Source of the DNA: Escherichia phage vB_EcoM_ESCO47
Sequence record: OM386662.1
DNA: 64,000 nucleotides
Direction: 5' to 3' (one strand)
The position numbers were made by a program, and so were the translations under genes. The notes below the pieces were generated by a model, which saw only the letters and a program-made list of their open reading frames with translations, was not told where the DNA came from and did not search any database. Shown here in pieces: positions 3,423-62,078 of the stretch. Each line of letters begins with the position of its first letter. The stretch's first letter is position 1.

Positions 3423-6400
3423 AGCTAAACGAACGATATAGTTAAACGCAACGTTTTTAACAGTGTTCTCTGTATTACCTGTTGCGTTAACTGTTATTGT
3501 GTGACTATGTGAGCCTAATGCAACGGTGTGTGTATGAGCACCAATACCTACAGTATGCGTATGAGCACCAACGGCCACGTTATGTGTATGTGCTCCAGCC
3601 GAAGCAGCAGTACCAGATAAAGAGTGACTGTGGTTGCCCTGACTGTCTGTTTTCGCACAATAACCAGCTCCCTGCTGGTTGGTTCCTTTAACCGTGGATA
3701 CACTTGCCGGAATGGTTACTGTTCCGTATTGGCTCCAACCACTACTGCTCATCCTTAAACCATCTGTGTGAGCATGGGCGCCGGTTGAGTTTGTGGAACC
3801 GCTCAGACTATGTGTATGCGCACCAGCTGAAGCAGCAGATTTGGTACCGTAGTCAAAACTCGAACTTGTCTTAGTACCGTAGTCAAAACTTGACGACGTT
3901 TTTGTACCTAGATCAACCGAGTTAGAAGAAGCACTATGGGTATGAGATTTAACACCATCTGCTTCTGTACTCAACACTGCACGACCACTCGGTTTACCTT
4001 TAATAGTTTGTCCACGCATATCAGGAATAGTTCCTGAAGTATATACTGCACCTAATTTAGGATACGCCGCTTTGTCAAAAGTCTGGCCTTCCATAATAGC
4101 ATAACCCACAGGAGGTGTATCAGTTGGCCATGGAATCGGAGCACCAATCGGATAACTAGAGATGATATCCGTCTTAAGACTATTTATCGTCGTATTTAGG
4201 TTAGCAAAGTTACCAGTACCACCTGTGATATTACCATCAGTACCAATTATAACGGTATTAATTTCAATTTTATTAGGTGAACGGAACGAGCCATCACGTC
4301 TAAATTGCCATGCTAAATCCGCCTTTTGTGGACCTGTTGAATCATTATCACCGCCTTCATGATAGTGAATTCTAAAATCACCCGTACTAATTAATGTACC
4401 CAAAGAATAACAACTATCGCCCTGGACATATCGTTGTTTCAAAATAGGAACGTAAGTACTTGTATCTGTACGATTAATATTCATGTAGAATGGGGCACGA
4501 ACATTTTCATTATTTTGCGAGACAAATGAACCAGCCCCTGCTGGTTTAACAATATCAGTACATTCAGCATCAATATATGTCGACTGCCCTAATTGCATAC
4601 GGAAATTAGGACTTATACGCGAATTAGTGGTCAACACAACGAGTTTTGTATCATTGTCTACGGTGACCATATTACCGCCGGCACCATCATCACCTAATGT
4701 AACGGTATGACGCATTTGTACCATGCCATTATTAAGACTAATACTTAATGGGCGGAGATTACTTATTCCACCGCTTTCACCAGCATCTTTGGGAGTTGGA
4801 ATAATATGCAATGCTGCTTCAGAGCGGCGGAAAATAGCACCGTATTCGGCATTCCAAATTCTTAATGCATCATTAGTTCCACCAATTTTAACTTGACCAC
4901 TAATAGAAGAACCGCCTGTTAAACTAAGTCCATTGCTCATGGTAACTGCACCATTTAAAGTGCTCAAACCATCAACTTTAAGACTTCCTGCAGTGTTAAT
5001 AGAGCCGTTAGCATTAACTTGTCCATTGAACTGGGATACAACAGGCCCAGTAGTTTCAGAGCCACTTGGAGCCATACGCTGTGAATAAAAATAATATCCT
5101 TGTCCATCAGAAACTTCGAATACTGTTTCGCGCGCTTTGTCACCGGTAGCATTAAAACTATTACCCCAAGCTTTAACAGTCACATAACTTTTATTCTGTC
5201 CTGCTCTAGAACCAGCTTCCCACAAGATTTGTTTTGTGCCGTCTACCCCTGTAGGAGCTTTAAATGTTAAAGCCGACGTATTATCGTCACCTGCAAAATA
5301 CATGCCGGATCGTATAGAAATACGTTGGGTTGAATAGATGGTACCATCAGCCCTAAGATTTAATTCATTATTACCGGTTTTGATGTTTAATATGCCAGGT
5401 TCAACAATAAGACCCTCGGACATAGATACTGCCATACGTCCTGTGCCACGGAAATAATGATAAAACTTACCATTACTATTATACCCAAGATGAGTTTGTC
5501 CATCACCGTTAGCATTACCATCAGGAGTTGTTTGAATTGTTAAAACAGAAGCGTTATTTCCAGGCATTACCCAGGTGGCACCAGAGTCATCTGAGCGACC
5601 GACAGTCAAACGTTTCGTACTTAAAAATACCCCATTTGTTAAAGTCGCAGTAGAAGTACCTTGTGCAACAAAATCAATTTTACCTGAAGCGATAGATTTG
5701 AATCCAGTAGATGGGTCCCCTAGAACTATATAACATTCGCCCATAGCGCCAGTTGAACCATAGTTATTAATGTTTTCATCTGCGGTAATTGTGCCAATTG
5801 CGAGAGAACGACGTAATACTAAAGATCCATCATTACGAAGACCCATCCGTTTATTAATCGCGGTGTCACCTGTCCACCAAGAAATCTCTTCGCTTTTACC
5901 AGTTTGTGAAGAAACTAATTCATGATAAATCGTGCCGCCGGATTTTGCGCGGAATTTACGAAGATAGTTAATACCGTTTTCTTCACCTGTGCCAGGATAA
6001 ACATACTGAACTAATGATTGCGAATCGTATTGTCCAAATGCTTTTGTGTCTAAAACAATGGTTTTCGTATTAACTTGTGGAGCAGAAACTATACCAGTAG
6101 CGGAGTTAATATTGCCTGACGCAGAAATATTACCTGTTGCAACAACCAAGCTACCAGAATCAACCGTAAATCCACCATCGCGTCGGAAAGTCCAATATTT
6201 CGAAGTGCCTGTTTCATCAATATAATGCATCTTCATTGAGCCTTCATTAACTAAGGTCCCTAATGAGAAAGTACCATCTTTATAACGTTGCTTAATTAAC
6301 GGGTTATATTCTGAAGTAGCGGTTGATGCGGAAATATCCATGAAAATAGGGGCTTTTGCCGTGTGTTGACCGGCCCAAGAACCAACTCCGGTGCCCTTAT

Positions 6401-6674
6401 AAGCAAATTCGATATATCCACCTGATGCAACATTTTGTGAGCCTATTAAATTAAATGTACCTGTCTGAGTATAGTTACCTACATGAGTTACATTACCATT
6501 AATATCCCCACCTTTAGCGAACCCAAGGTTAATAATATTGCCTAAATCATCTTTTGTAAAAATAGTACGATCTTTTAAGTTTATAGCCAATTCACCTTCG
6601 GCTAATTGCGCAGCTGTTGGATTAACACCAGCTACTTTGCTTCTTTTAAATTGTATTTGCTTAATAGTAGCCAT
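3420..6674 (-). CDS. 37: gp37, long tail fibre distal subunit (receptor-binding tip)
   Basis: 1084 aa; C-terminal GAHTHS/GAHAHT/GSHSHT His-box repeats and ..NYIVRLA end typical of T4 gp37. Confidence 0.9.
3500..3640 (-). repeat. His-box repeats (GAHTH / GSHSH) at gp37 C-terminal tip
   Basis: repeated GTGTGAGC / GTGTATGAGCACC motifs encoding HxH pairs. Confidence 0.7.
3844..3933 (-). repeat. 30-bp in-frame tandem repeat within gene 37 ([10 protein letters not shown] units)
   Basis: GTACCGTAGTCAAAACT recurs at 3844 and 3874, diverged third unit at 3904. Confidence 0.7.
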
Positions 6675-11500: not shown

Positions 11501-12396
11501 TGGTCACCTTCCCATACTCTCCACAAACTAGATGCTGCATCAAAAATAAAAAGAGCATCAGCAAAATTACGACCTTCAGCGATATGTGTCCCAACTTCAC
11601 GGATAGAAGTCGTATCATCAAATGTTTTAACAATTGTATGATACAAAGGGTTTAATTTATCCAAATCGACGAGATTAATTACGTCACCGTTATTAGCGTT
11701 GCGTGGCAATGTAATATTAATAGGAGCTGCACTGGTAAAACGACGAATAATAAAATCATTAGCTTGCGCCTGATAAGGTGCCGCTGGAGTTACTATAGTA
11801 GATTTGTTACCATAATCAACAAGATACATGTGCCATAAACGATTGCTGAAAACTAAAACAATCTGAGATTTAGGGTGAGTCATTAAAACCGAACGAACCT
11901 GTTCGCCTTTAAAGTTCACAATACTCTGAACTGAAGCGTTGATTTGCACTTTAACTGTGCCTGGTTTGCCACCAATATCCGCTAAAACGATTGTATCACC
12001 ATCAACAGGAGAGCTAGGCAAAGTGAAGTCCATGTCATTCCCGGCGGCTGTATTAACAGAAATCGATTCACCTGATGCTAATTGATATGACCCAGTAGAA
12101 ACGGTTATCCACTGTGCATCTGTACGAACTGCACGCCACAGACCTAAATTGAAATTACCTGCCGGAGAAGGAATATCATTAATTGCTTGATATAAGCGGT
12201 TATCATAAAGAACAACAAACCCGCGCACGTATCCGCGTGTATTACTATAATTCTGTACGGTGTTTTCTTGTACCAGGAAGTCAACGTTTACGCCATCAGT
12301 ACCAACTGTACGGTCGGCTAATGCTACGTTAACAATCTTGTCGCCACCGGCGTCCAGTCCGTCTTCGGCTCTGAACTTACGTTTGATGTCGGCCAT
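8551..12396 (-). CDS. 34: gp34, long tail fibre proximal subunit
   Basis: 1281 aa, internal roughly 40-aa repeats (..ATQAETDAGTDDT..TPKKL..), late promoter upstream, divergent from rnh. Confidence 0.9.
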   Translation of the reverse strand: MADIKRKFRAEDGLDAGGDKIVNVALADRTVGTDGVNVDFLVQENTVQNYSNTRGYVRGFVVLYDNRLYQAINDIPSPAGNFNLGLWRAVRTDAQWITVSTGSYQLASGESISVNTAAGNDMDFTLPSSPVDGDTIVLADIGGKPGTVKVQINASVQSIVNFKGEQVRSVLMTHPKSQIVLVFSNRLWHMYLVDYGNKSTIVTPAAPYQAQANDFIIRRFTSAAPINITLPRNANNGDVINLVDLDKLNPLYHTIVKTFDDTTSIREVGTHIAEGRNFADALFIFDAASSLWRVWEGDQKSRLRIVRTDTVISPNEEILVFGANNASVSTVNLTLPTGILSGDTVKISLNYMRKGQTVKIKAASTDTIYSSVELLQFPKRSEYPPDADWVSVTELEFNGTTSYVPVIELAYIEEAGRNNYWIVQQNIPTVERVDSLNDTTRARVGVIALANQAQANVDLENSPAKEVAITPETLANRTATETRRGIAKTATTAQVNQDSTATFVDDTIVTPKKLNERTATETRRGLAEIATQAETDAGTDDTTIITPKKLQARQGSETLSGIVKYVSTASATPAATRGTAGTNVYNKDTTTLTISPKALDQYKATSTQQGATILALESEVIAGQSQAGYSHAVVTPETLHKKTSTDGRIGLIEIATQAETDAGTDYTRAVTPKTLNDRKATEALSGIAEIATQVEFDAGTDDTRISTPLKVKTHFDSSDRTGVNSDSGLIEEGTLWNHYTLDISKANETQRGTLRVATQAESNAGTLDDVLITPKKLLGTKSTETSEGVIKVATQAETVTGTSANTAVSPKNLKWIVQNEPTWAATTAIRGFVKTSSGSITFVGNDTQGNTQDLNLYEKNSYAISPYEFNRVLANYLPLKAKAADTELLDGLDSLQFIRRDIDQTVNGSLSLTKQLNLSAPLVSTSTGFFGGSVSANSTLTIANTDTAPRLIFEKGNQYATSSTENVSIRVFGNTFGSGADKTRATVFEVSDETSHHFYTQRNNLGNIQMNVNGGLTSVNLNATGNLTVTGTTTSTGSISSNGEIVSRSPIAFRAINGNYGFMIHNAGNSSYFVLTDSGNQSGTFNSLRPLTINNATGLVRLDNGVQITNGATITSGGLTVNSRIISSGSKTADLYTRKPTEGTVGFWSIDINDEATYTQFPGYWTRDAAGNRVQEIKYPGTLTQFGNSLNSLYQDWICYPTGANGGSIRYTRTWQRNKDAWTSFAMVFDSGNPPSPSDVGALPSDNAVIGNLTIRDFLRIGNVRIVPDPINKTVKFEWIE

Positions 12397-13424: not shown

Positions 13425-13694
13425 ATGGCTAAGAAAGAAGCAGTCGAATTTAATCAAGATGTACACGGTGAAGAACTGGCGAAACTGGTCAAGGAAGCTT
13501 CCGATAATAAACTTAAAATTTCTGGGTATAACGAACTGATTAAAGACATTCGTATTCGTGCTAAAGACGAACTTGGCGTCGATGGTAAAATGTTTAATCG
13601 TTTGCTGGCTCTTTATCATAAAGATGCTCGCGATCAATTTGAAGCCGAAACCGAAGAAGTGGTGGAATTATATGACACTGTTTTCACTAAGTGA
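13425..13694 (+). CDS. dsbA: dsDNA-binding protein DsbA
   Basis: ORF 13407..13694; ATG at 13425 gives 89 aa (T4 DsbA length) with GAGG SD. Confidence 0.8.
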   Translation: MAKKEAVEFNQDVHGEELAKLVKEASDNKLKISGYNELIKDIRIRAKDELGVDGKMFNRLLALYHKDARDQFEAETEEVVELYDTVFTK

Positions 13695-14010
13695 TATTAA
13701 ACCGGTCGATGAGGCCGGTCTCTCCGAAAAAGAGTTAGCGGTAAAACAAGACAAAGATGATATTGCTAAACTCCTTGATCGCCAAGAAAATGGCTTCTTA
13801 ATCGAGTCTATGGTAAATCAGTACGGTATGACTTATTTAGAAGCAACGACTGCTTTTCTGGAAGAGAACTCTATTCCTGAAACCCAGTTTGCTAAATTTA
13901 TTCCATCAGGAATTATTGAAAAAATTACAAGCGAAGCCGTTGATGAGAATATGCTTCGCCCTTCAATTGCTCGCGGTGAAAAAACTAATACGTTAGATTT
14001 CTTATTATGA
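13672..14010 (+). CDS. 33: gp33, late transcription co-activator
   Basis: ORF 13558..14010; internal ATG at 13672 gives 112 aa (T4 gp33 length); between dsbA and 59. Confidence 0.8.
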   Translation: MTLFSLSDIKPVDEAGLSEKELAVKQDKDDIAKLLDRQENGFLIESMVNQYGMTYLEATTAFLEENSIPETQFAKFIPSGIIEKITSEAVDENMLRPSIARGEKTNTLDFLL

Positions 14011-16246: not shown

Positions 16247-17926
<1,680 letters not shown>

Positions 17927-21754: not shown

Positions 21755-21784
21755 GGAAGGGACTTAGGTCCCTCTTATATTATG
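21753..21784 (+). promoter_or_regulatory. candidate split RBS of denA: SD, hairpin, 8 nt, AUG
   Basis: AAGGA 21753-21757, hairpin AGGGAC-UUAG-GUCCCU 21758-21773, CUUAUAUU, AUG 21782. Confidence 0.45.
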
Positions 21785-22192
21785 AAAGATATCGCCGCAG
21801 AATATTCTTTTATTAAATATACAGAGTTAGAATTATTGGAAGACGCGACAATTAAAACGGTTGAAGTCCCTAATAAGAAAAACGTTATCTATGCGATTGT
21901 AATAGATGATGAACTCATGTATATTGGTAAAACTAAGAATCTAAAGAAACGCATTAACTATTATCGAACTGCTATAAATCGAAAAGACCAGACTTCAGAC
22001 TCTAGAAAATCTTTAATGATTTTAGACGCGTTAATGCAAGGTCTAAAGGTCGAATTCTGGGCCCGCCAATGTTTCGACCTATCGGTCACCAACGAACTCG
22101 GTTCTATGACCATCGCAACGATGGACCTTGAAGAGCCACTGTTTATTAAGAAGTTCAACCCGCCTTGGAATATCCAATACAAGAAAAAGTAG
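21782..22192 (+). CDS. denA: endonuclease II (GIY-YIG)
   Basis: 136 aa (T4 length); IYAIV..YIGKT..YY GIY-YIG motif. Confidence 0.9.
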   Translation: MKDIAAEYSFIKYTELELLEDATIKTVEVPNKKNVIYAIVIDDELMYIGKTKNLKKRINYYRTAINRKDQTSDSRKSLMILDALMQGLKVEFWARQCFDLSVTNELGSMTIATMDLEEPLFIKKFNPPWNIQYKKK

Positions 22193-23432: not shown

Positions 23433-23933
23433 ATGAACATGCAATTGATTACTAATGATATGGTTGTAGCAGCATTTGGGGATTCAACCGACGGCATCCA
23501 AGTCTTTAAGAAAGGACGTGCAGTTGGTTACCTCACTGATCTTCGTACTACCCTGGCTAAAAATGCTAAAAAGAAGGTGAAGCAAAAGGAATACTCTACA
23601 CGATATGTTGAAGAAAAACGCGAAGCAATGCCGGAAGCAGTAAACGCAATGGTAGAGTTCCTTCAAAACAATCTGTCTAAATATGACGCTAATGTGTTCA
23701 TTAATATTAGTCAACCTAATGTTCATATTGCTGATAACAAATTTTATATCATTTGCGATCCTTTGTCTGATAAATTCAATCGTCTCGGAATTTCAAGCCC
23801 TTATCATACAGCAGAAGAGTTGTGTGTACTGTTTGAGACTTATAAAATCCAATGTGATGGTCCTAAGACAGTCTTGATTAATGGTTTGTCCCGAGACGAA
23901 ATCATTGAGATTATTGAAAAATGCTTAAAGTAA
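23433..23933 (+). CDS. alc: Alc, inhibitor of host transcription on dC-DNA
   Basis: 166 aa, position between rnlA and spanins as in T4; early promoter. Confidence 0.75.
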   Translation: MNMQLITNDMVVAAFGDSTDGIQVFKKGRAVGYLTDLRTTLAKNAKKKVKQKEYSTRYVEEKREAMPEAVNAMVEFLQNNLSKYDANVFINISQPNVHIADNKFYIICDPLSDKFNRLGISSPYHTAEELCVLFETYKIQCDGPKTVLINGLSRDEIIEIIEKCLK

Positions 23934-24277
23934 ATCCGATTTATGCTGTCATCGGAGCATTTGCTCTGGTTTCAGTGGTTACAATAGTTTTCTTAAATCA
24001 TAAAGTTGACTCGTTAACAACCGAATTGACCACAGTTAAACAGGTCGCTAAAAACAACGCTGAAGCGTTAGATTCATTCAAGATTCAATATGAGTCCATT
24101 AAAACCATGACTTATAAGAATCAGGCATTAGTTGAGCAAATTAAGGCTGAAAATGAAAAACTCCGGAAGGATGCGAAGAAGAGCAGCGTGGTGGCAAAGA
24201 AACCAGGACTCGTCGAGAACCAAATCAACAAGTCCTTTAACGCCTATGCAGAAGACCTCAGGAAGCTTTCAGAATGA
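23921..24277 (+). CDS. i-spanin (inner-membrane spanin, pseT.3-type)
   Basis: 118 aa; N-terminal TM segment AVIGAFALVSVVTIVFL then coiled-coil-like periplasmic domain; adjacent lipoprotein gene. Confidence 0.7.
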   Translation: MLKVNPIYAVIGAFALVSVVTIVFLNHKVDSLTTELTTVKQVAKNNAEALDSFKIQYESIKTMTYKNQALVEQIKAENEKLRKDAKKSSVVAKKPGLVENQINKSFNAYAEDLRKLSE

Positions 24278-29942: not shown

Positions 29943-30314
29943 ATGAACACTATCAATTTAAATGCTACAATTAAATGCCGTGACCATGATGGATATAAAT
30001 CTCAAGTTGTTAACGAGTTACAGTGGATGGTTCGTTCAGTTCAAGGTGATGTGGTTTATTGTACAACTCCTGATGGCCCTTCAGACGATTTTTGTTATCA
30101 TATCGAAATCGAAAACTTTTTCACTGGTGAAATTTACCGTCTGAATTCTACAGTTTATGGCTGTATTCGTTCTAAAACTTACGAAGATGAAGAAACTGGT
30201 TACTCTGAAGATGTTGTATGGTACGAAAACGCCAGAAATCGCGCAGAGACATTAATCGAGAAGATTAAAGCAAAAGGTGTTATTGATTCAGCTAAGTGGA
30301 CAAAAATCAAATAA
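29943..30314 (+). CDS. hypothetical early protein (30.x)
   Basis: 123-aa ORF, early promoter and GGAGAA SD. Confidence 0.6.
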   Translation: MNTINLNATIKCRDHDGYKSQVVNELQWMVRSVQGDVVYCTTPDGPSDDFCYHIEIENFFTGEIYRLNSTVYGCIRSKTYEDEETGYSEDVVWYENARNRAETLIEKIKAKGVIDSAKWTKIK

Positions 30315-50025: not shown

Positions 50026-50060
50026 AAAAAAAAAAGGGACCGTAAGGTCCCTTTTTTTTT
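50026..50060. terminator. bidirectional terminator between convergent rnlB and gene 24
   Basis: A10 GGGACC-GUAA-GGUCCC T9. Confidence 0.75.
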
Positions 50061-51342
50061 ATTCATCTATAATAATTTTAGGCAATTTAACACCGAGTAA
50101 AACAGACAAGTCCGAACGTCCTGCCATTTTATCCATGTCCCCGCCATCAATTATTCTCGCTTCTTTTTCATCTTTTGCTACTGTGTAAGGATTTGCTGAT
50201 AAAGCATATCTAACCAATAATCCGATAGACGGTTGCAAGCTTTCTGGATCAACTACAACTTTAAATGCACCAACATGTTCCGGGTCATCTAAATCTACTC
50301 CTTCAGTGTATGGAGCATAAAAGATGGACCCTACAATTTCTTTTTCGCCGATATTTTCTACAACACCCACAACAACATAATCTAACGGACTGTTGGTATC
50401 GCAGTAAAGAGGTAATCCATTTGCCAAGAATCCATAAGCATTTTGTGAAAGATACTTGTCATCTTCTGGCTTATGTTTTAACCAACCAGAAGCAGCAAGA
50501 ATAGCAGCTGCACGAGCTGAGGCTACACAAAACGTTGCAGTATAAGTTGTCTCTTTTTGAATGTGTGATACCATTTCACACACCATTCGATATAATGAAC
50601 GACCTGCTTCTGGAGCGGATGCATAGCTCAAGTCAATAAATCCGGTGTCAGTAATTCCAGTAACTTTATAACGTTTCGATACAGTAATTAAAGACTGAAG
50701 AATATCTTTATTAATTTCATCAGCCATTTCAGTTGCAAGCAAATCTTCTAAGAAGTTAGGGGCATCAAATCCATTCGCTTCCAAGTCTTGCGCTAATTCA
50801 ACCGTGAGACCAGTTTTAAGTTTACGGGATTTGACTGAAGTTTGCCATTTATTAATCTGGAATCTTGCATCCGCAATTTTGCTATCAGAGCTTTCAAATT
50901 TGCTTGTTGACGCTGCGTCAGAAAATAGACGAACCTTTAAAAGAACGACTGCAATCTGAAGAGCTAACTCTAAGTCGCTTTCTTCAATATCAGCAAATGG
51001 AGTATCTTCTAACACTTTATAGACGATATTATTATATTTGAATAAATCGCCTTTATCGAGAGTTAATTTAGACTCTTCTGTTAATTCTGTGATTTGTTCT
51101 CGGTCTACATATCCAGCTTCGCCTGCATAAGTAGCACCAGTTTTAAATGTGAATTCGTTATCTGGGTTAAGATATTTGATACCATAAAAAGCAGCAACAG
51201 GTTGATTAGTTCTTTGTGTTGCTACAATGTCAGAATATATTAATTTGGTCGTAGCGCGAGTCAAAGCAACGAGATTTGGGCGACCAATTGAGTTGCTAGT
51301 AGACGTTGTAGATTCACGCAATAATTTTTGGATTTTACTCAT
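50059..51342 (-). CDS. 24: gp24, capsid vertex protein
   Basis: 427 aa (T4 length), paralogous fold to gp23; late promoter upstream. Confidence 0.9.
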   Translation of the reverse strand: MSKIQKLLRESTTSTSNSIGRPNLVALTRATTKLIYSDIVATQRTNQPVAAFYGIKYLNPDNEFTFKTGATYAGEAGYVDREQITELTEESKLTLDKGDLFKYNNIVYKVLEDTPFADIEESDLELALQIAVVLLKVRLFSDAASTSKFESSDSKIADARFQINKWQTSVKSRKLKTGLTVELAQDLEANGFDAPNFLEDLLATEMADEINKDILQSLITVSKRYKVTGITDTGFIDLSYASAPEAGRSLYRMVCEMVSHIQKETTYTATFCVASARAAAILAASGWLKHKPEDDKYLSQNAYGFLANGLPLYCDTNSPLDYVVVGVVENIGEKEIVGSIFYAPYTEGVDLDDPEHVGAFKVVVDPESLQPSIGLLVRYALSANPYTVAKDEKEARIIDGGDMDKMAGRSDLSVLLGVKLPKIIIDE

Positions 51343-51443: not shown

Positions 51444-51713
51444 ATGACTAAAGCACGTTTCTTACGAGATACTTTAAAAGTTCTGGAAGCTGAAGCAGTT
51501 AAGTTAGTAGAAAAATATGGTGCAAAAGTTAATGGTAATGCCTTCAACAAAGTATGGATGAAAGTTGATTCTGAAGCTCGAGCTAAAGGTTATTGGGCCA
51601 CTGATAAACTTGCATCATTCAAAAACAAAGACGGTTCTCCAGCATATGTCCAAAAAGGTATGCCTAATTGGCAAAATATTTTGAAAACTTACATCGAAAT
51701 TGCACAGAAATAA
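51444..51713 (+). CDS. hypothetical early protein in the 24/23 intergenic slot
   Basis: 89-aa ATG ORF with early promoter and GAGGAG SD. Confidence 0.55.
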   Translation: MTKARFLRDTLKVLEAEAVKLVEKYGAKVNGNAFNKVWMKVDSEARAKGYWATDKLASFKNKDGSPAYVQKGMPNWQNILKTYIEIAQK

Positions 51714-51746
51714 AACCAAAAATGGGAGACCGAAGTCTCCCAAAAA
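51711..51746 (-). terminator. terminator downstream of gene 23 (A/T runs on both sides)
   Basis: GGGAGACCGAAGTCTCCC on + strand gives GGGAGAC-UUCG-GUCUCCC on - strand, flanked by AAAAA and AAAAAT. Confidence 0.65.
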
Positions 51747-51766
51747 TAAGATTTAATCAATTAAGA

Positions 51767-53335
51767 TTAGATGCCTTTTACATATACACGGCGGAAGTAA
51801 GCATTCTTACCAAGGCTGTTCAGGATAGACGGCGAACCGGACTGGATGCGAGCACCTGGAGCCTGCTGGGAACTTTCAGCAAACGGGTTAACACCGATAC
51901 CGTAACGAGTTTTAAAGCCCATTACCGGCTGGAAGTTCTTAGGATCGGAACCACGCAGTGGGGTGAGTGCAACGTAAGGAGCATAGTAAATACCTGCATC
52001 CATTTCGTTAGCGCCTTTGTAACCAACGGTGAAGTAATCCTGTTTAGCATACTGGTCGATGTATACGCGGTATTTACCACCAAGTACACCGGCGAATACA
52101 GACTTAGTAGTGTCGGTATTAAAACCAGAAGCCAGACCCTGTGCAGCGTAAGAAATACCAGTATCAACTGAAGCCAGTACGTTAACTACGTTACGGGAAG
52201 CGATAATGAAGTTACCTTCACCACGGCCGGTTTGACGAGCAATTTCAACTGCTTCTTTATCAATCTGGAACAACAGAGCTTTAAAGCTCTCACCAGCCCA
52301 ACGAGCACCACGGATATCAATCGGATCCTGGAAGTCAAATACACCAGCTTTAGCACCAGCAGTATTGGTCATACCGGATTTACCAACCTGTGCAGAGTAG
52401 TTAATCCAATCAACAACTTCACGGTTGATTTCAAGCATGATTTCAGTAGCCAGAATACCACTCAGTTCAGCATCTGCATCCATACCGTGTACTGCACGAA
52501 GATCCTGTGCCAGTTCGATAGAGTAAGCAGCTTTCAACTGACGGGATTTAGCTTCGATAACTTGTTTATCGATACGGAAGCCCATTTCGTTCCAAGGGTT
52601 ATCACTAGAACCATTGAAGCCTTCCTGAAGTTCAGCGATAGAAGTAGCCATACCTTCAGCGATTTCAACGAGTTTACCAGCTTCAACTTGTTTCAGAACT
52701 TCTTCATCAAGTAGTTTAGGGGTGGTAGCTGCAGCATCAATAGTAACAGCTTCAACAGCCTGCAGATATGCAGAACCGGTTTCAGTGAAGAAATGATAAT
52801 AAATGTCGCCAACTACAGTGGTCAGACCAGCTGCAACAGGAGCGAATGCTTGAGCGGCACCTTTACCAGAATACATTGCATCCGGAGCATACATCGGATG
52901 GAAAGCTTCTTTAGCACCGGCAGCGACAGGGTCTTTACCATATACTGCGCGAAGAGCAAATACCTGACCGGTAGGGCTGTTCATAGGCTGAACACCGCAA
53001 ATATCAAAAGCGATCAGATTAGGGATAGCACGACGAACCATACCCATAACTGCCGGACCGATCTGGGTTACTGCACCAGAGGTTTGACCTGCTGCGATGT
53101 TCTGAGCATTATAACCGTGGTCACCGCCAATTTCTGCTTCGGTCAAGAAAGAACCAAATGCCTGAGCGATTTTTTCGTCTTTATATTCAGGGGATACTTC
53201 GAAATCTTTTTCCTGGTTTTCGAAGATTTTAGCGATAATAGCCTGCTTGCTATTAGCGATTTCCGGCAGGCCTTCACCTTCCAGCAGTTCTTTCCATTTG
53301 TCTACGAGCTGAGCTTTAGTTTTGATAGTAGTCAT
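51767..53335 (-). CDS. 23: gp23, major capsid protein
   Basis: 522 aa; AAEIGGDHGYNAQNIAAGQTSGAVTQIGPAVMGMVRR matches recalled T4 gp23; GC-richer codon usage. Confidence 0.95.
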   Translation of the reverse strand: MTTIKTKAQLVDKWKELLEGEGLPEIANSKQAIIAKIFENQEKDFEVSPEYKDEKIAQAFGSFLTEAEIGGDHGYNAQNIAAGQTSGAVTQIGPAVMGMVRRAIPNLIAFDICGVQPMNSPTGQVFALRAVYGKDPVAAGAKEAFHPMYAPDAMYSGKGAAQAFAPVAAGLTTVVGDIYYHFFTETGSAYLQAVEAVTIDAAATTPKLLDEEVLKQVEAGKLVEIAEGMATSIAELQEGFNGSSDNPWNEMGFRIDKQVIEAKSRQLKAAYSIELAQDLRAVHGMDADAELSGILATEIMLEINREVVDWINYSAQVGKSGMTNTAGAKAGVFDFQDPIDIRGARWAGESFKALLFQIDKEAVEIARQTGRGEGNFIIASRNVVNVLASVDTGISYAAQGLASGFNTDTTKSVFAGVLGGKYRVYIDQYAKQDYFTVGYKGANEMDAGIYYAPYVALTPLRGSDPKNFQPVMGFKTRYGIGVNPFAESSQQAPGARIQSGSPSILNSLGKNAYFRRVYVKGI

Positions 53336-53352
53336 TTGTGTTAACCTTTAAA

Positions 53353-54165
53353 TTAGAAACGAGATGCGACTTTCGCATATAAACTTACATTAGAATTCTG
53401 TTCTACCGGAGTTTCGGTATTCCCAACTGCTTCGGTAACAAAATTAAGACCGGCAGCGTCATTGTCAACGGTATTTATACTTTCAGTAATGGCGGTTTCT
53501 TCTTTAGTAGAACCTTTAACCATTTCTACGATAGCCGACAGTTTAGTACCAAATACGTCGGAATAATCCATTCCTTCAACCAGACCAATAACTTTTTCTT
53601 TCTGAGATTCGGTCAGGTCTTTAACGCTTTCAATAATAGCGGTTTCACGCTGAACGTAATTAATATACGCATCACGTTTGGTAACTTCTTCGAACAAATG
53701 AGCAGTTTCTGCTTTATGTTCAGCCAGCTCTTCTTCCATTTCTGCAACTACATCAACGGATTCTTCTGGAACAACAACATTGTGTTCAACGAACAGTTCT
53801 TTAAGACCACCAAGCATGGATTCGAACAAATCAGCTTTAATGCCTTTATCGACTGCGATTTGGTTTTCGGCAAGCCATTCTTTGGCAAGATGATCAAGGA
53901 ATTTAGAAGCTTGTTCAGTCAATTTTTTATCAGCTTTGTCTTCAGCGTCTTCCTTAGCCTTTTCAACTTCCTCTTCGGCTTTTTCTGCAATAGCTTTGAT
54001 ATGGGATTCAGCCAGTTTAACGGCTTCCTGCTTAACGGTGGCTTCGAATACAGTGCTGAAATTAGCTTTAACGTCCGGAGACAGGTCAACTGATTCGAAA
54101 ACACTATTAAGAGCAACTGAAGTCTCGATATTCTGAGCTTCTTTCAAAAGTTGTTCTTTAATCAT
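53353..54165 (-). CDS. 22: gp22, prohead core scaffold
   Basis: 270 aa, Glu/Lys/Ala-rich helical protein, synteny. Confidence 0.85.
   Translation of the reverse strand: MIKEQLLKEAQNIETSVALNSVFESVDLSPDVKANFSTVFEATVKQEAVKLAESHIKAIAEKAEEEVEKAKEDAEDKADKKLTEQASKFLDHLAKEWLAENQIAVDKGIKADLFESMLGGLKELFVEHNVVVPEESVDVVAEMEEELAEHKAETAHLFEEVTKRDAYINYVQRETAIIESVKDLTESQKEKVIGLVEGMDYSDVFGTKLSAIVEMVKGSTKEETAITESINTVDNDAAGLNFVTEAVGNTETPVEQNSNVSLYAKVASRF
53472..53479 (-). promoter_or_regulatory. candidate late promoter for gene 23 (inside gene 22 3-prime end)
   Basis: TATTTATA on + strand about 140 nt upstream of gene 23 start. Confidence 0.35.
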
Positions 54166-54195: not shown

Positions 54196-54203
54196 TATTT
54201 ATA
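54196..54203 (-). promoter_or_regulatory. late promoter TATAAATA for gene 22
   Basis: 31 nt upstream of start. Confidence 0.55.
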
Positions 54204-54840
54204 ATGCTTTTAAACTCTCTGCGAGAGCTTTAAATGCTTCATCAGCACTGTTTTTGGTGGAATCCACCATTGTTTCTGATTCTGAAATTTGTTTTGGAGT
54301 AACCCAAGCATCTGGAGCAGAAGGTCCCCATACGGCGTCAACGCCTACGGTTAATTTAAAACCTTCGTTAACAATACGGTATCCTTTGTTGGTTTCAGTT
54401 AAAGAACCTAGACCACGAGAGGAAACGCCTGGAATCCAACCTGCACGTATATTAGCTGCTAATTTATCACCGGGACCATGGTCACCTTCAATAATTCTAG
54501 CACGCCCATATACATCATTTCCTTTCCACCACATATCTTCGATAATGATAGCGGCTTGCATAGGGTCAACGTTTGCACGAGGTGGATGATTTAATTCTCC
54601 AAGGGCTTGTTTAGTAACAACTTGCTCTTTAATATAATCCGAAACAGCTTTTTCTAAAACACGTTTAGGATATAAGCGTTTATTACGGTTAACTACTTCC
54701 GCCTGAAGAAAAATACCTTCTATATAAAGCCCTGGTTTTAAGCCAGAATCTTTTCCATCGTGAGATTCCAACATTGGAACACCGTCGATAATCTCACCGG
54801 GTTGACCCCAAGTTTCAATAAGTAACTCGGGAGTATTCAT
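54199..54840 (-). CDS. 21: gp21, prohead protease
   Basis: 213 aa, synteny 20-67-68-21-22-23. Confidence 0.9.
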   Translation of the reverse strand: MNTPELLIETWGQPGEIIDGVPMLESHDGKDSGLKPGLYIEGIFLQAEVVNRNKRLYPKRVLEKAVSDYIKEQVVTKQALGELNHPPRANVDPMQAAIIIEDMWWKGNDVYGRARIIEGDHGPGDKLAANIRAGWIPGVSSRGLGSLTETNKGYRIVNEGFKLTVGVDAVWGPSAPDAWVTPKQISESETMVDSTKNSADEAFKALAESLKAL

Positions 54841-55265
54841 TAACTTAATCCTAATGCTTGACGACGTTTAATAGCTTTTTTACGCTTACGCTGAGCACGA
54901 GCCTGACCAGATGGGTTGGCTTTTTTAGCTTTAACGACCTTACGAGCGATTTGTCTACGTTTTGCTTTAGAAAGACCCGTAGTTTGGAACGCATTACGTT
55001 CGCGAGTTTTACGGTCTTTAGTGCGGGTAATTTCACCGCGAGAAGAAACGTGTTTAACAATAAACTCATTTAGCTGTTCTTCGTTAATAATAGAAGCCAT
55101 TGCGATAGCTAAATCCGTTTCAGTTTCAAGCATGTTCTCGATAATATTATTTATATCATTATTATCGAGAGCAGAAGACAATGCATCGATACGGCCCTGT
55201 GCTTCAGGAATAAGTGCTTCGACATTTTCGAGTACTAATTCATAAGATTCAGGGATTAAATACAT
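54840..55265 (-). CDS. 68: gp68, prohead core protein
   Basis: 141 aa, basic C-terminus. Confidence 0.75.
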
Positions 55266-55498
55266 TATTCGTCCTCGTCGTCTTCGTCATCTTCCGACTC
55301 ATCTTCGTCTTCATACTCATCTTCGTCTTCAGACTCATCTTCGTCTTTAGGTTCTTCGCCTTCAATCATAAATTGCCTAGCAATTTCTACTTTGCGAGCT
55401 TCAACCAAACTAGTCGCTTTCGCCGCCATCGCACTTTCAAAAAATTTACGAGCAGCAACGAGGTCGTTTGATTTAATAGCCTGAATTAAATCGTCCAT
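55265..55498 (-). CDS. 67: gp67, prohead core protein
   Basis: 77 aa with Asp/Glu-rich C-terminal tail. Confidence 0.7.
55266..55345 (-). repeat. imperfect tandem repeat encoding the acidic tail of gp67
   Basis: TCATCTTCGTCTTCA units recur three times. Confidence 0.6.
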
Positions 55499-57069
55499 TA
55501 AAAATCCTCTTGTTCTTGATCGGGGTCTTGGAAACGAGCCTCTTTCGACTCTTCTTCAATCTGCTTAGCCTCTTGTTCAATTTCCTCATCAGACATCTGA
55601 AGAATATCTTTCATTGCTGATCTATGAGAAATATATTTACCAATAAATGGTTCGGCCATCTGAAGCATGTTAATGCGTCGCTCCAGAATTTCAGCATCTT
55701 TTAATTCCGAGAAATAACTATCCCGATGAAATTTTATCTTAATATTATTTATTTCATCGTTCCACTCGTCTTCCGTAATAATTCCTTTAAGAATTAAATT
55801 AGTTTTAAGCGGGTCTAGGAATATCTCTTCAAATTTATGTTGCAGCTCACGAATAAATTTACCAAATGTCAATTCATCTCGTGTAATAGAAGTACCAGCA
55901 TCAAACTGTATACCACCTTGGTCGCTTGGAATACGGGTAATAGGAATACGTAAAGCCATATAAAGCGCATTACGGAACCAACGTACATCTTCCATATTTC
56001 CAGTATTATCTGCACCCGGTAATGTATCAACTTCTGTTACTGCTTTACCATCACGTCGTTGTAACCAATAATCTTCGGTCATCGACATAATATGCTGTTG
56101 GTTTTTAATCTTGCCTGTAGTAGCATCATATGCAATACGGTTTTTCATCGTATTCATAACATGTTGCATATGTTCTGCTGCTTTTCTTGAAGGCATATTA
56201 CCTGTATCAACGTACCATACACGACGATCGGGAGCACGAGTAATACGATAAATTACGACAGCATCTTCAAGAAGTTTTAATTGGTTCGCCGGCTTAATAG
56301 CCCGATGCAAATAACCAATGATATTTTTACCACAACAATCAACTAAACCAGAATGGGCATAAACAATCGCGGCTTTAGGGATTTTTATTTTTGTGCCAGC
56401 TTCATATATGCGACCATCACAAGCATAAGATTCGTGTGATGTGTCATAAATGAAATATTCTTTATAACCCTTGACTATTTTAACACCAGCTTCAGTGGTT
56501 GTAATAACTTCACGGACATATTGAACTTGACGTGGGTCTAAACGACGAAGCTCTTTAATACCTTCTTTAGGGCGTTTAGGGTCAATAATTTTATGGAAGA
56601 AAATTCGAGAATCTACGTACCAACGTCTAAAATGGTCTGAACCTTTACGTTGGAAAGATAAATGATTTAACACTTCGTTAAATTCATCCAACATCATTGA
56701 TTTGATATTTGGACTAAATTTTGTGTTGTCTAAATTTATAGAAACGACTTCTGTATCATCTTCATACACGATAGCATCGGAAACTATTTCAGAGACTGCA
56801 TTATCCACTTCATAGTTCGTCATCAAATTTCGATACGTATCGATTAATTCACGGGTTGATTTGAGCCCTGGTTCTTGGCTACCGAACATTCTCTGAAACA
56901 TAGCATTATATGTTTGCTGTGCTTCATTTTCAGATACTTCGTATTCTCTAGCACCGTCGTCTATTTTTGGAGCGGTAATAGATTCTAAATTTTCTTTTTC
57001 TTTTTGTTGATAATCACGTTCGTCCATTTTTGCCCATGGAGCAAACAAACTTAAGATATTAAATTTCAT
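55498..57069 (-). CDS. 20: gp20, portal vertex protein
   Basis: 523 aa, late promoter 29 nt upstream. Confidence 0.9.
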
Positions 57070-57097: not shown

Positions 57098-57105
57098 TAT
57101 TTATA
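57098..57105 (-). promoter_or_regulatory. late promoter TATAAATA for gene 20
   Basis: 29 nt upstream of start. Confidence 0.6.
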
Positions 57106-57717: not shown

Positions 57718-57725
57718 TATTTATA
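57718..57725 (-). promoter_or_regulatory. late promoter TATAAATA for gene 19
   Basis: in 18-19 intergenic region. Confidence 0.5.
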
Positions 57726-59737: not shown

Positions 59738-59765
59738 TTTAATTCCTCTTAATTTGCTTTATTTT

Positions 59766-62078
<2,313 letters not shown>

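Follow-up and report, generated by a model that had tools for sequence, protein, structure and literature searches.

The major capsid gene (gene 23) of a Mosigvirus-like, T4-type coliphage is distinguished from the genes around it by codon adaptation to the host, not by GC3. Its codon adaptation index (CAI) is 0.710, compared with 0.702 for a reference set in which 30 genes of E. coli K-12 (for ribosomal proteins and elongation factors, plus rpoA) are pooled, 0.442 for ordinary E. coli genes, and 0.396 +/- 0.076 for the other genes of the window, i.e., the 64-kb stretch of the ~168-kb genome that was analysed, whose 78 genes form the comparison background. Gene 23 ranks first of the 78, and the runner-up reaches 0.601. 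The codon bias of gene 23 is very probably the outcome of selection for efficient translation with host-optimal codons, of which the local rise in GC content is a by-product; the host-optimal bias of the capsid gene is a real effect that has long been known.

Identity and setting of gene 23

The following features of gene 23 and its surroundings are referred to below:
51767..53335, minus strand: gene 23, major capsid protein precursor, 522 aa (open reading frame and Pfam Gp23, PF07068)
50059..51342, minus strand: gene 24, vertex protein, a paralogue of gp23 (Pfam Gp23, E = 1e-97)
53472..53479, minus strand: T4-type late promoter motif TATAAATA (exact motif match)
53345..53349, minus strand: Shine-Dalgarno-like AAAGG, putatively functional, 9 nt before the gene 23 ATG
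51723..51742, minus strand: intrinsic-terminator-like hairpin TGGGAGAC-TTCG-GTCTCCCA followed by a T run (consensus match only)

The Gp23 profile PF07068 matches the minus-strand open reading frame with E = 2.6e-121 over profile positions 1-375 of 376, and the coordinates assigned to gene 23 in the initial annotation proved exact. The counterpart in relatives is annotated as the major capsid protein, and gp23 is 90% identical in amino acid sequence to gp23 of T4. The NCBIfam search gave no match for gp23 or orf89, and a PDB sequence search with orf89 gave chance-level matches only. The order of the head genes, 20-67-68-21-22-23-24 (neighbours identified by Pfam and PHROG), is common to T4 and to MZ234025, the closest database phage; gene 23 is a core gene that keeps its position and synteny in every relative compared, and no integrase, transposase or homing endonuclease gene adjoins it in the window.

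The candidate late promoter TATAAATA is located 137 nt 5' of the ATG of gene 23, within the 3' end of gene 22, and its motif occurs 17 times in the window against 7.1 expected; its promoter function is presumed from the T4 late-promoter consensus. The hairpin, with an 8-bp stem that includes five G-C pairs, lies 25 nt past the stop codon of gene 23, between that gene and orf89, which are convergent, and its form suggests that it acts as a terminator.

Codon choice and base composition

Codon usage in gene 23 is heterogeneous with respect to the rest of the window (chi2 = 260, df 41, p = 1e-33), and when the amino acid sequence is held fixed in simulation a CAI of only 0.409 +/- 0.019 is expected, from which gene 23 departs by z = 16. 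The bias runs evenly through the gene (CAI 0.62-0.79 per 50-codon window), the cleaved N-terminal propeptide included. Codon fractions follow those of the E. coli reference set family by family: CTG, CAG, ATC, ACC, TTC and AAC are enriched, as are GGT, CGT and GCT; GCG, GTG, ACG, GGA, GGG, ACA, TTA, ATA, AGA, AGG, CGA and CGG are never used; and the G-ending codons GCG, GTG, ACG, GAG and GGG are depleted. The preferences common to gene 23 and the highly expressed genes of E. coli are CTG, CGT, GGT, GCT, ACC/ACT, ATC, TTC, AAC, CAG, GAA, AAA and TCT/TCC, but gene 23 is viral and lies within an AT-rich genome in which the remaining genes favour the opposite, A-ending codons. A phage-like residue that sets gene 23 apart from the E. 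coli set remains in GAT (0.69), CCT (0.50), CTT (0.24) and TAT (0.50). Abundance of host tRNAs is represented here by the codons that the ribosomal-protein and elongation-factor genes of E. coli use, together with the tRNA gene numbers given in PMC4032129 for CUG and CGU, which Table 1 of that paper shows as tRNA-favoured in E. coli.

The total GC content of gene 23 (0.462 versus 0.383) is the highest among the 78 genes, and the 1-kb bin 52001-53000 (GC 0.457) is the maximum of the window. Amino acid composition accounts for 0.041 of the GC excess of 0.079: gp23 contains 13.4% Ala and 10.0% Gly, versus 7.1% and 6.3%, and GC1 and GC2 of the gene are 0.603 and 0.420, versus 0.498 and 0.368 in other genes. 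With the amino acid sequence fixed, an excess is also present at synonymous first positions (GC1, z = 4.8) and at third positions, where the GC3 expected from the amino acid sequence and pooled codon usage is 0.278 +/- 0.018 (z = 4.6, the largest deviation in the window).

The initial annotation had attributed to gene 23 far more G/C-ending codons than its flanking genes, and had named the distribution of GC3 among neighbouring genes as the measure of this. GC3 is indeed higher in gene 23 (189/521 = 0.363) than in the four immediate flanking genes (257/995 = 0.258; Fisher p = 3e-5), but against the window value of 0.284 it ranks only 7/78 (z = 1.3), or 2/46 when only genes of 150 aa or more are counted (z = 2.2). 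Because gene 23 therefore falls inside the distribution for the window, the claim is marginal by its own measure and weak overall, whereas the per-gene CAI proposed alongside it makes the gene a clear outlier. Raw GC3 was rejected as a discriminating statistic: several small genes (a spanin-like gene, an endonuclease gene and a gp33-like gene) have GC3 of 0.40-0.45 and yet a low CAI. As for the codons singled out by eye, enrichment holds for CGT, GGT, CTG and ACC but not for GCA (0.29 versus 0.31), and three of these five (CGT, GGT and GCA) end in T or A, the G/C-ending label being the only error of description.

There is no general GC shift in gene 23. At four-fold degenerate sites GC is 0.237, versus 0.233 in the rest of the window (p = 0.88), although the four-base distribution differs (p = 6e-5), T rising from 0.50 to 0.61 and A falling from 0.27 to 0.15. 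In the NNY families the fraction of C is 0.53 in gene 23, versus 0.34 (p = 4e-5).

Copy number, phage tRNAs and gp23 of other phages

The genes that follow gene 23 in CAI are the rIII homologue (0.601), gp22 (0.599), gp32 (0.590), gp19 (0.567), gp67 (0.538), an unnamed small open reading frame at 29943-30314 (0.529) and gp18 (0.527). With the exception of the unnamed frame and the rIII homologue, which is small, all of these encode abundant proteins. Among 22 structural genes, CAI is correlated with virion copy number (Spearman 0.90, p = 1e-8), expression level being represented by T4 virion stoichiometry, with copy numbers taken from T4. The product of gene 23 is counted at ~930 copies per capsid and that of gene 24 at ~17-fold fewer; the figures of 930 and 55, like the copy numbers of the prohead core proteins (gp22, gp67, gp68, gp21 and Alt), are general background values. 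Gene 24 is unremarkable in CAI (0.368) and in GC3 (0.251). It offers an internal control, being of low copy number but matching gene 23 in Pfam family, in strand and in late timing. Tail copy numbers were those of PMC3004832 Table 1, and that of Hoc was from PMC3012670.

A survey of 74 phages that compared structural with non-structural genes, and that cites precedents in T7 and lambda, found that host CAI is raised in structural genes when amino acid sequence and GC3 are controlled (Lucks et al. 2008, PLoS Comput Biol, PMC2266997). The present phage conforms to that pattern, in that genes of high-copy virion proteins carry host-preferred codons and translational selection is the reading given to them; it differs in showing a graded relation to copy number inside one phage (rho 0.90), and goes beyond the survey in that the CAI of the capsid gene equals the level of host ribosomal-protein genes.

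The codons that T4-type phage tRNAs decode account for 3.4% in gp23 but 28% elsewhere, the lowest share of all genes (p = 1e-22), and gp23 therefore depends on host tRNAs. This avoidance is stronger than in gp23 of T4 (8/236 versus 34/244 codons). A tRNA scan of the window found none; the phage tRNA genes considered are those of a relative and of T4, the numbers being two in Mosigvirus relatives and eight in T4. As discussed in PMC4032129 (Kunisawa 1992; Bailly-Bechet 2007), phage-encoded tRNAs offset codon mismatch with the host. The problem that such compensation addresses, an AT-rich phage codon demand set against host tRNA supply, is shared by gp23, but its solution is the opposite one, near-avoidance of the codons that phage tRNAs read. 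Such near-total avoidance might possibly insulate gp23 from the gain and loss of phage tRNA genes, of which T4 has so many more than the Mosigvirus relatives.

In T4, gene 23 has a GC content of 0.451, a GC3 of 0.346 (highest of 51 genes) and a CAI of 0.683, versus 0.374 +/- 0.080 for other genes, so that the orthologue displays the same codon anomaly when recomputed. The phage studied here differs from T4 in its Mosigvirus-like lineage, its slightly higher genome GC, and the fewer tRNA genes of its relatives. Cowe & Sharp reportedly examined codon usage in gene 23 of T4 in 1991 (J Mol Evol 33:13-22, cited in PMC3152331). The gp23 gene of Krischvirus GEC-3S has a CAI of 0.756.

The use of CAG or CAA for Gln, CTG for Leu, and AAA or AAG for Lys varies sharply among gp23 genes of coliphages, Acinetobacter, Vibrio and Aeromonas phages, and cyanophages: CAG is 0.71-0.88 and CTG 0.52-0.79 in coliphages, the fraction of CAG in an Acinetobacter phage is 0.00 and in a Vibrio phage 0.15, and cyanophage S-PM2 has an AAA fraction of 0.06. 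These switches would fit the optimal codons of the respective non-enteric hosts. GC3 is not raised in gp23 of the Acinetobacter or Vibrio phage; total GC of gp23 exceeds that of the rest of the genome in 7/7 phages examined, even where GC3 is not raised. It is possible, though we would not yet lean towards it, that gp23 combines a universal bias (NNC in two-codon and NNT in four-codon families) with a few host-diagnostic switches that are usable for host assignment. The g23 gene is the standard environmental marker for T4-like phages, and its codon choices, if this suggestion is true, could assign hosts to uncultured members of the group from amplicons alone.

Genes of higher CAI show a smaller synonymous difference from T4 (pS; rho = -0.59, p = 5e-5), an overall correlation that is supportive; because gp24, hoc and gp31 are as low as gp23 despite an ordinary CAI, it is not decisive for gp23 alone. 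The use of dN/dS versus MZ234025 as a test of reduced dS in gp23 was rejected, the genomes being recombination mosaics: dS is ~0.05 from 32 to 50 kb and between 0.1 and 1.1 from 50 to 64 kb, a mosaic from which it follows that recombination among T4-like phages occurs here. Database relatives likewise match the 50-64 kb block at 90.5% and the 30-50 kb block at 96%, the former being the more diverged.

Probable translational selection and its alternatives

The product of gene 23 would constitute the largest synthesis demand of the phage (~930 copies for each capsid, times the burst size), and late gene 23 mRNA would take up a large share of host ribosomes, so that selection for fast, ribosome-sparing elongation would have fixed the codons of the most abundant E. 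coli tRNAs at nearly all degenerate positions. The codons so favoured would be NNC in two-codon pyrimidine families and for Ile, CTG for Leu, CAG for Gln, NNT (or GCA/GTA) in four-codon families, CGT/CGC for Arg and GGT/GGC for Gly; A-ending and rare codons, frequent elsewhere in the AT-rich genome, would be shut out, the eight codons read by phage tRNAs among them. The GC bump would then consist of two roughly equal parts, one from an Ala/Gly-rich protein (codon positions 1 and 2) and the other from those optimal codons that add GC (CTG, CAG, ATC, ACC, TTC and AAC, plus the first positions of Leu and Arg codons). The selective agent is probably elongation efficiency mediated by tRNA abundance. 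The suggestion in the initial annotation that gene 23 is adapted to abundant host tRNAs is borne out by a CAI at the level of the reference set and at the top of the 78 genes, by the correlation with copy number (rho 0.90) and by the unremarkable gp24; its rejection of a foreign origin is upheld by the unchanged GC of four-fold sites, the same anomaly in T4 gene 23, and the conserved synteny.

If the GC bump were purely a matter of amino acid composition, with no selection at synonymous sites, the raised GC1 and GC2, the 13.4% Ala and 10.0% Gly, the composition-derived 0.041 of the 0.079 excess, and the elevated total GC of gp23 in all seven phages, even those with GC3 not raised, would be explained; composition is a real contributor, but as the sole cause it is highly unlikely, insufficient alone to account for the deviations that remain in GC3 (z = 4.6), synonymous GC1 (z = 4.8) and CAI (z = 16) with the amino acid sequence fixed, or for the codon heterogeneity (p = 1e-33). 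Horizontal acquisition of gene 23, or of the head module, from a GC-richer phage or host whose composition was retained could draw on the greater divergence of the 50-64 kb block (90.5% versus 96%) and on the mosaic dS versus MZ234025, but gp20, gp21, gp22 and gp24 of the same diverged block have ordinary GC3 and CAI, the gene 23 anomaly is shared by T4 and GEC-3S, gene order is kept, and there are no flanking mobility genes. The GC of four-fold sites (0.237 versus 0.233) is unchanged and therefore the most neutral sites bear no donor signature; such an origin is extremely improbable, and the GC bump is not to be taken as horizontal transfer. Just as improbable is a local mutational or repair bias, whether transcription-associated mutation or GC-biased gene conversion: heavy late transcription of gene 23 and the recombinational mosaicism of the region might promote either, but a bias of this kind should reach all degenerate sites, yet GC at four-fold sites is flat and G-ending codons are depleted, and the gains are codon-specific, match host optimal codons and vary in direction with the host (CAG is 0 in the Acinetobacter phage).

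Selection on codon choice could also act for reasons other than speed or ribosome economy. Translational accuracy, i.e., avoidance of missense errors and misfolding, is an unlikely but not a far-fetched reason: capsid assembly is sensitive to misfolded subunits, gp23 requires GroEL and gp31, and the optimal codons of E. coli are also those most accurately read. In an Akashi-type test, in which invariance was judged across seven gp23 orthologues, the frequency of optimal codons is 0.645 at 124 invariant sites versus 0.651 at 381 variable sites (Mantel-Haenszel OR 0.92, p = 0.74), a null result by which the accuracy variant is not favoured, although the test has modest power, the bias being close to saturation; the bias is also uniform along the gene, through the cleaved propeptide. 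Selection at the level of mRNA (structure, stability or nuclease avoidance) in place of tRNA matching is conceivable for a gene that has its own putative late promoter and terminator, but it is very improbable, for it would predict neither the family-by-family match to E. coli ribosomal-protein genes nor the host-linked switches.

Under translational selection with host-optimal codons, gene 23 is a textbook case of such selection on a viral gene, with host-optimal codons in the midst of an AT-rich genome that lacks them. The bias confirms the identity of gene 23 and points to very high expression. The relation of CAI to copy number provides an internal calibration that could rank the expression of unknown open reading frames in the phage. 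The codon bias also accounts for three long, spurious antisense open reading frames that a gene caller might report.

Gene order and expression signals around gene 23

The window is part of the genome of a T4-like coliphage whose closest database relatives are Mosigvirus phages of E. coli, which share 94% identity with it in the gene 23 region; the figure is 96% between 30 and 50 kb and 90.5% between 50 and 64 kb. The major capsid gene, a 522-aa ORF with exactly the bounds given in the initial annotation, matches the Pfam family Gp23 (PF07068) end to end (E=2.6e-121), and its product is 93.7% identical to its best database match and 90% identical to T4 gp23. It occupies its canonical place in the order of head genes, which was fixed from Pfam and PHROG matches and by reference to T4 and to MZ234025, the closest database phage:

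55498-57069, gp20
55265-55498, gp67
54840-55265, gp68
54199-54840, gp21
53353-54165, gp22
51767-53335, minus strand, gp23
51444-51713, plus strand (opposite to gp23), small ORF of 89 aa between genes 23 and 24
50059-51342, same strand as gp23, gp24

A T4-type late-promoter motif, TATAAATA, is located at 53472-53479, 137 nt 5' of the gene 23 ATG; a Shine-Dalgarno-like AAAGG lies 9 nt 5' of the ATG; and the stop codon is followed by a G+C-rich hairpin and a T run (51742-51723). Judged by these consensus matches, gene 23 appears to form a late transcription unit of its own with strong expression. The motif occurs 17 times in the whole window (7.1 +/- 2.8 expected), mostly directly 5' of late structural genes, further examples on the minus strand being:

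54196-54203, minus strand, late-promoter motif
57098-57105, minus strand, late-promoter motif
57718-57725, minus strand, late-promoter motif
59765-59772, minus strand, late-promoter motif

The small ORF at 51444-51713 occupies the slot of the homing endonuclease segD in T4; it matches phrog_6003, a family with no assigned function, and has no Pfam or NCBIfam match and no meaningful PDB match. It has no synonymous differences from MZ234025, whereas flanking genes 24 and 23 have dS of 0.14 and 0.23, a contrast suggesting that the ORF recently underwent a sweep or exchange.

Base composition and codon choice

Composition was computed per codon position for 78 non-overlapping ORFs called in the window. 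The local GC bump reported at gene 23 is real: the bin 52001-53000 has the highest GC of all 1-kb bins (0.457), and gp23 has the highest GC of the 78 genes (0.462, against 0.383 for the pooled rest), with GC1 of 0.603 against 0.498, GC2 of 0.420 against 0.368, and GC3 of 0.363 against 0.284. The excess of 0.079 divides into 0.041 from amino-acid composition (Ala 13.4% vs 7.1%, Gly 10.0% vs 6.3%) and 0.038 from synonymous choice, the latter acting at position 3 (+0.085) and, through Leu CTN and Arg CGN, at position 1 (+0.029).

The assertion that gene 23 uses far more G/C-ending codons holds only weakly: its GC3 exceeds that of the pooled rest and of four flanking genes (0.258, p=3e-5), and its excess over the value predicted from its amino acids and the pooled codon usage (0.278 +/- 0.018) has the highest z of all genes in the window (4.6), but it ranks seventh of 78 (z=1.3; second of the 46 genes of at least 150 aa, z=2.2) and lies inside the window's distribution, the outcome that the initial annotation had named as refuting its claim. 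As a description of the bias, "G/C-ending" is mistaken. Of the five codons offered as examples, three (CGT, GGT and GCA) end in T or A, and GCA shows no enrichment (0.29 vs 0.31). Codon usage departs strongly from that of the other genes in the window (chi2=260, df 41, p=1e-33), yet GC at four-fold degenerate sites does not (0.237 vs 0.233, Fisher p=0.88); at these sites T is raised (0.61 vs 0.50) and A lowered (0.15 vs 0.27, p=6e-5). GC3 is higher because C increases in the two-codon pyrimidine families (0.53 vs 0.34, p=4e-5), together with Ile ATC (23/36), Gln CAG (0.81 vs 0.33) and Leu CTG (0.52 vs 0.09). The G-ending codons GCG, GTG, ACG and GGG are absent, and GAG (1/34), GTC (1/37) and GCC (3/70) nearly so.

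GC3 is higher still (0.40-0.45) in several small genes whose E. coli CAI is only 0.35-0.42; high GC3 is therefore decoupled from host adaptation in this phage genome. These genes comprise an Rz-like spanin, an endonuclease, an ORF with no assigned function and a gp33-like late transcription factor:

23921-24277, plus strand, small high-GC3 gene
21782-22192, plus strand, small high-GC3 gene
16247-16474, plus strand, small high-GC3 gene
13558-14010, plus strand, small high-GC3 gene

Three ORFs of 160-183 aa share the codon-aligned antisense frame of gene 23:

51668-52171, plus strand, antisense ORF
52232-52714, plus strand, antisense ORF
52793-53344, plus strand, antisense ORF

Their stops are reverse complements of the sole CTA (52712-52714) and TCA (52169-52171) codons of gp23, which has no TTA. 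They were rejected as genes, being a by-product of its codon bias.

Relation to host codon usage, tRNAs and protein abundance

The CAI weights rest on a reference of 5185 codons in 30 genes of E. coli K-12, namely those for ribosomal proteins plus tufA, fusA and rpoA. When GC3 and CAI are computed per gene, gp23 has the highest CAI of the 78 genes (0.710), equal to that of the pooled reference set (0.702) and far above 28 pooled ordinary E. coli genes (0.442), the other 77 window genes (0.396 +/- 0.076, runner-up 0.601) and the expectation with its amino acids fixed and window codon usage (0.409 +/- 0.019, z=16). Its CAI is even along its length (0.62-0.79 across all 50-codon windows), and its codon fractions track the highly expressed set family by family. 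Next come the rIII homologue (0.60), gp22 scaffold (0.60), gp32 (0.59), gp19 (0.57), gp67 (0.54), the small ORF 29943-30314 (0.53) and gp18 (0.53), all abundant proteins except the small rIII homologue and ORF 29943-30314.

CAI and copy number per virion or prohead rise together across 22 structural genes (Spearman 0.90, p=1e-8). Copy numbers are T4-type values, some of which (the prohead core, and the figures 930 and 55) are general background. Those of tail proteins are from PMC3004832 (Table 1) and that of Hoc from PMC3012670. The adjoining paralogue gp24 (CAI 0.368, GC3 0.251) is a natural control, sharing the fold family, strand and late timing of gp23 but present in ~55 copies.

There are no tRNA genes in the window. 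The Mosigvirus relative MZ234025 has two (11502-11656 of its locus L006; anticodons CAT and TCT), keeping only the AUA-Ile-type and AGA-Arg tRNAs among the eight of T4 (5174-6531 of T4 locus L007; TCT, CAT, TGT, TGA, TGG, TCC, TAA and TTG). Codons read by the eight (AGA, ATA, ACA, TCA, CCA, GGA, TTA and CAA) make up 3.4% (8/236) of the relevant families in gp23, the minimum among 78 genes, against 28% in the rest of the window (p=1e-22); thus, the capsid gene appears to be coded for tRNAs of the host rather than those of the phage. The initial annotation is partly confirmed as an observation, the GC bump and codon bias being real, and supported in its interpretation: the CAI, its correlation with copy number and the paucity of phage-tRNA codons all favor adaptation of a highly expressed late gene to host tRNAs. 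The codon bias of gene 23 adds a further clear-cut example of an effect that was already on record. Codon patterns of T4 genes were reportedly analysed by Cowe and Sharp in 1991, a study cited in PMC3152331. Raised host CAI in structural genes, with amino acids and GC3 controlled, has been described in 74 phages (Lucks et al. 2008, PMC2266997), and the interplay of phage tRNAs with codon usage has been discussed (Chithambaram et al. 2014, PMC4032129).

Other hosts, rival explanations and divergence

Gene 23 of T4 (GC 0.451; GC3 0.346, top of 51 genes; CAI 0.683 vs 0.374 +/- 0.080) and of Krischvirus GEC-3S (CAI 0.756) shows the same anomaly. In T4-like phages of other hosts, gp23 likewise has more C in NNY codons, more T and less A at four-fold sites, and a preference for GGT and CGT, while other preferences change:

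Fractions of selected gp23 codons, by phage and host
Coliphages (window, T4, GEC-3S): CAG 0.71-0.88, CTG 0.52-0.79
AB1I1M-1 (Acinetobacter): CAG 0.00, CTG 0.00
TCU-VP04-AIR2 (Vibrio): CAG 0.15
PX29 (Aeromonas): CTG 0.90, CAG 0.21
S-PM2 (Synechococcus): AAA 0.06

GC3 is not raised in gp23 of the Acinetobacter phage (0.25 vs 0.24) or the Vibrio phage (0.38 vs 0.39); total GC of gp23 is nevertheless above that of the remaining genome in each of the seven phages, in these two because the protein is rich in Ala and Gly. We infer that gp23 codon preferences match each phage's own host. Across loci L008-L012 (Acinetobacter, Aeromonas, Vibrio, Synechococcus and Krischvirus phages), Gln CAG/CAA, Leu CTG and Lys AAA/AAG switch so sharply with host that they look diagnostic of it.

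A host-dependent codon switch with flat GC3 is what adaptation to host tRNAs predicts, and what neither GC drive nor foreign origin predicts. Mutational bias or gBGC raising the GC of gene 23 is contradicted on two counts: many G/C-ending codons are depleted, and the direction of the bias depends on the host. Foreign origin, which the initial annotation had already disfavored, is contradicted by unchanged four-fold-site composition, ordinary neighbour genes, conserved synteny and the matching pattern of T4 gene 23. Amino-acid composition, although it contributes to the GC bump, is refuted as its sole cause by simulation with the amino-acid sequence fixed, and selection on mRNA structure does not predict the family-by-family agreement with host ribosomal-protein genes.

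In an Akashi-type test, optimal codons were no commoner at 124 invariant sites (0.645) than at 381 variable ones (0.651; OR 0.92, p=0.74). Accuracy-driven selection thus gains no support, and the result fits gene-wide selection on elongation efficiency. Synonymous difference between the window phage and T4 decreases with rising CAI (rho=-0.59, p=5e-5), but gp24, hoc and gp31 differ from T4 as little as gp23 does, and recombination mosaicism dominates the comparison with MZ234025; as evidence for translational selection, dS is supportive only. Divergence of 30000-64000 from MZ234025 and T4 is a recombination mosaic. Relative to MZ234025, dS is ~0.05 over 32-50 kb, 0.14-0.5 over g24-g67, 0.11 in g20 and 0.5-1.1 over g19-g14. 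Relative to T4, gp24 (97% amino-acid identity), gp31 (97%) and Hoc (86%) are unusually close, with dS of 0.5-0.64 against >1.3 for most genes.
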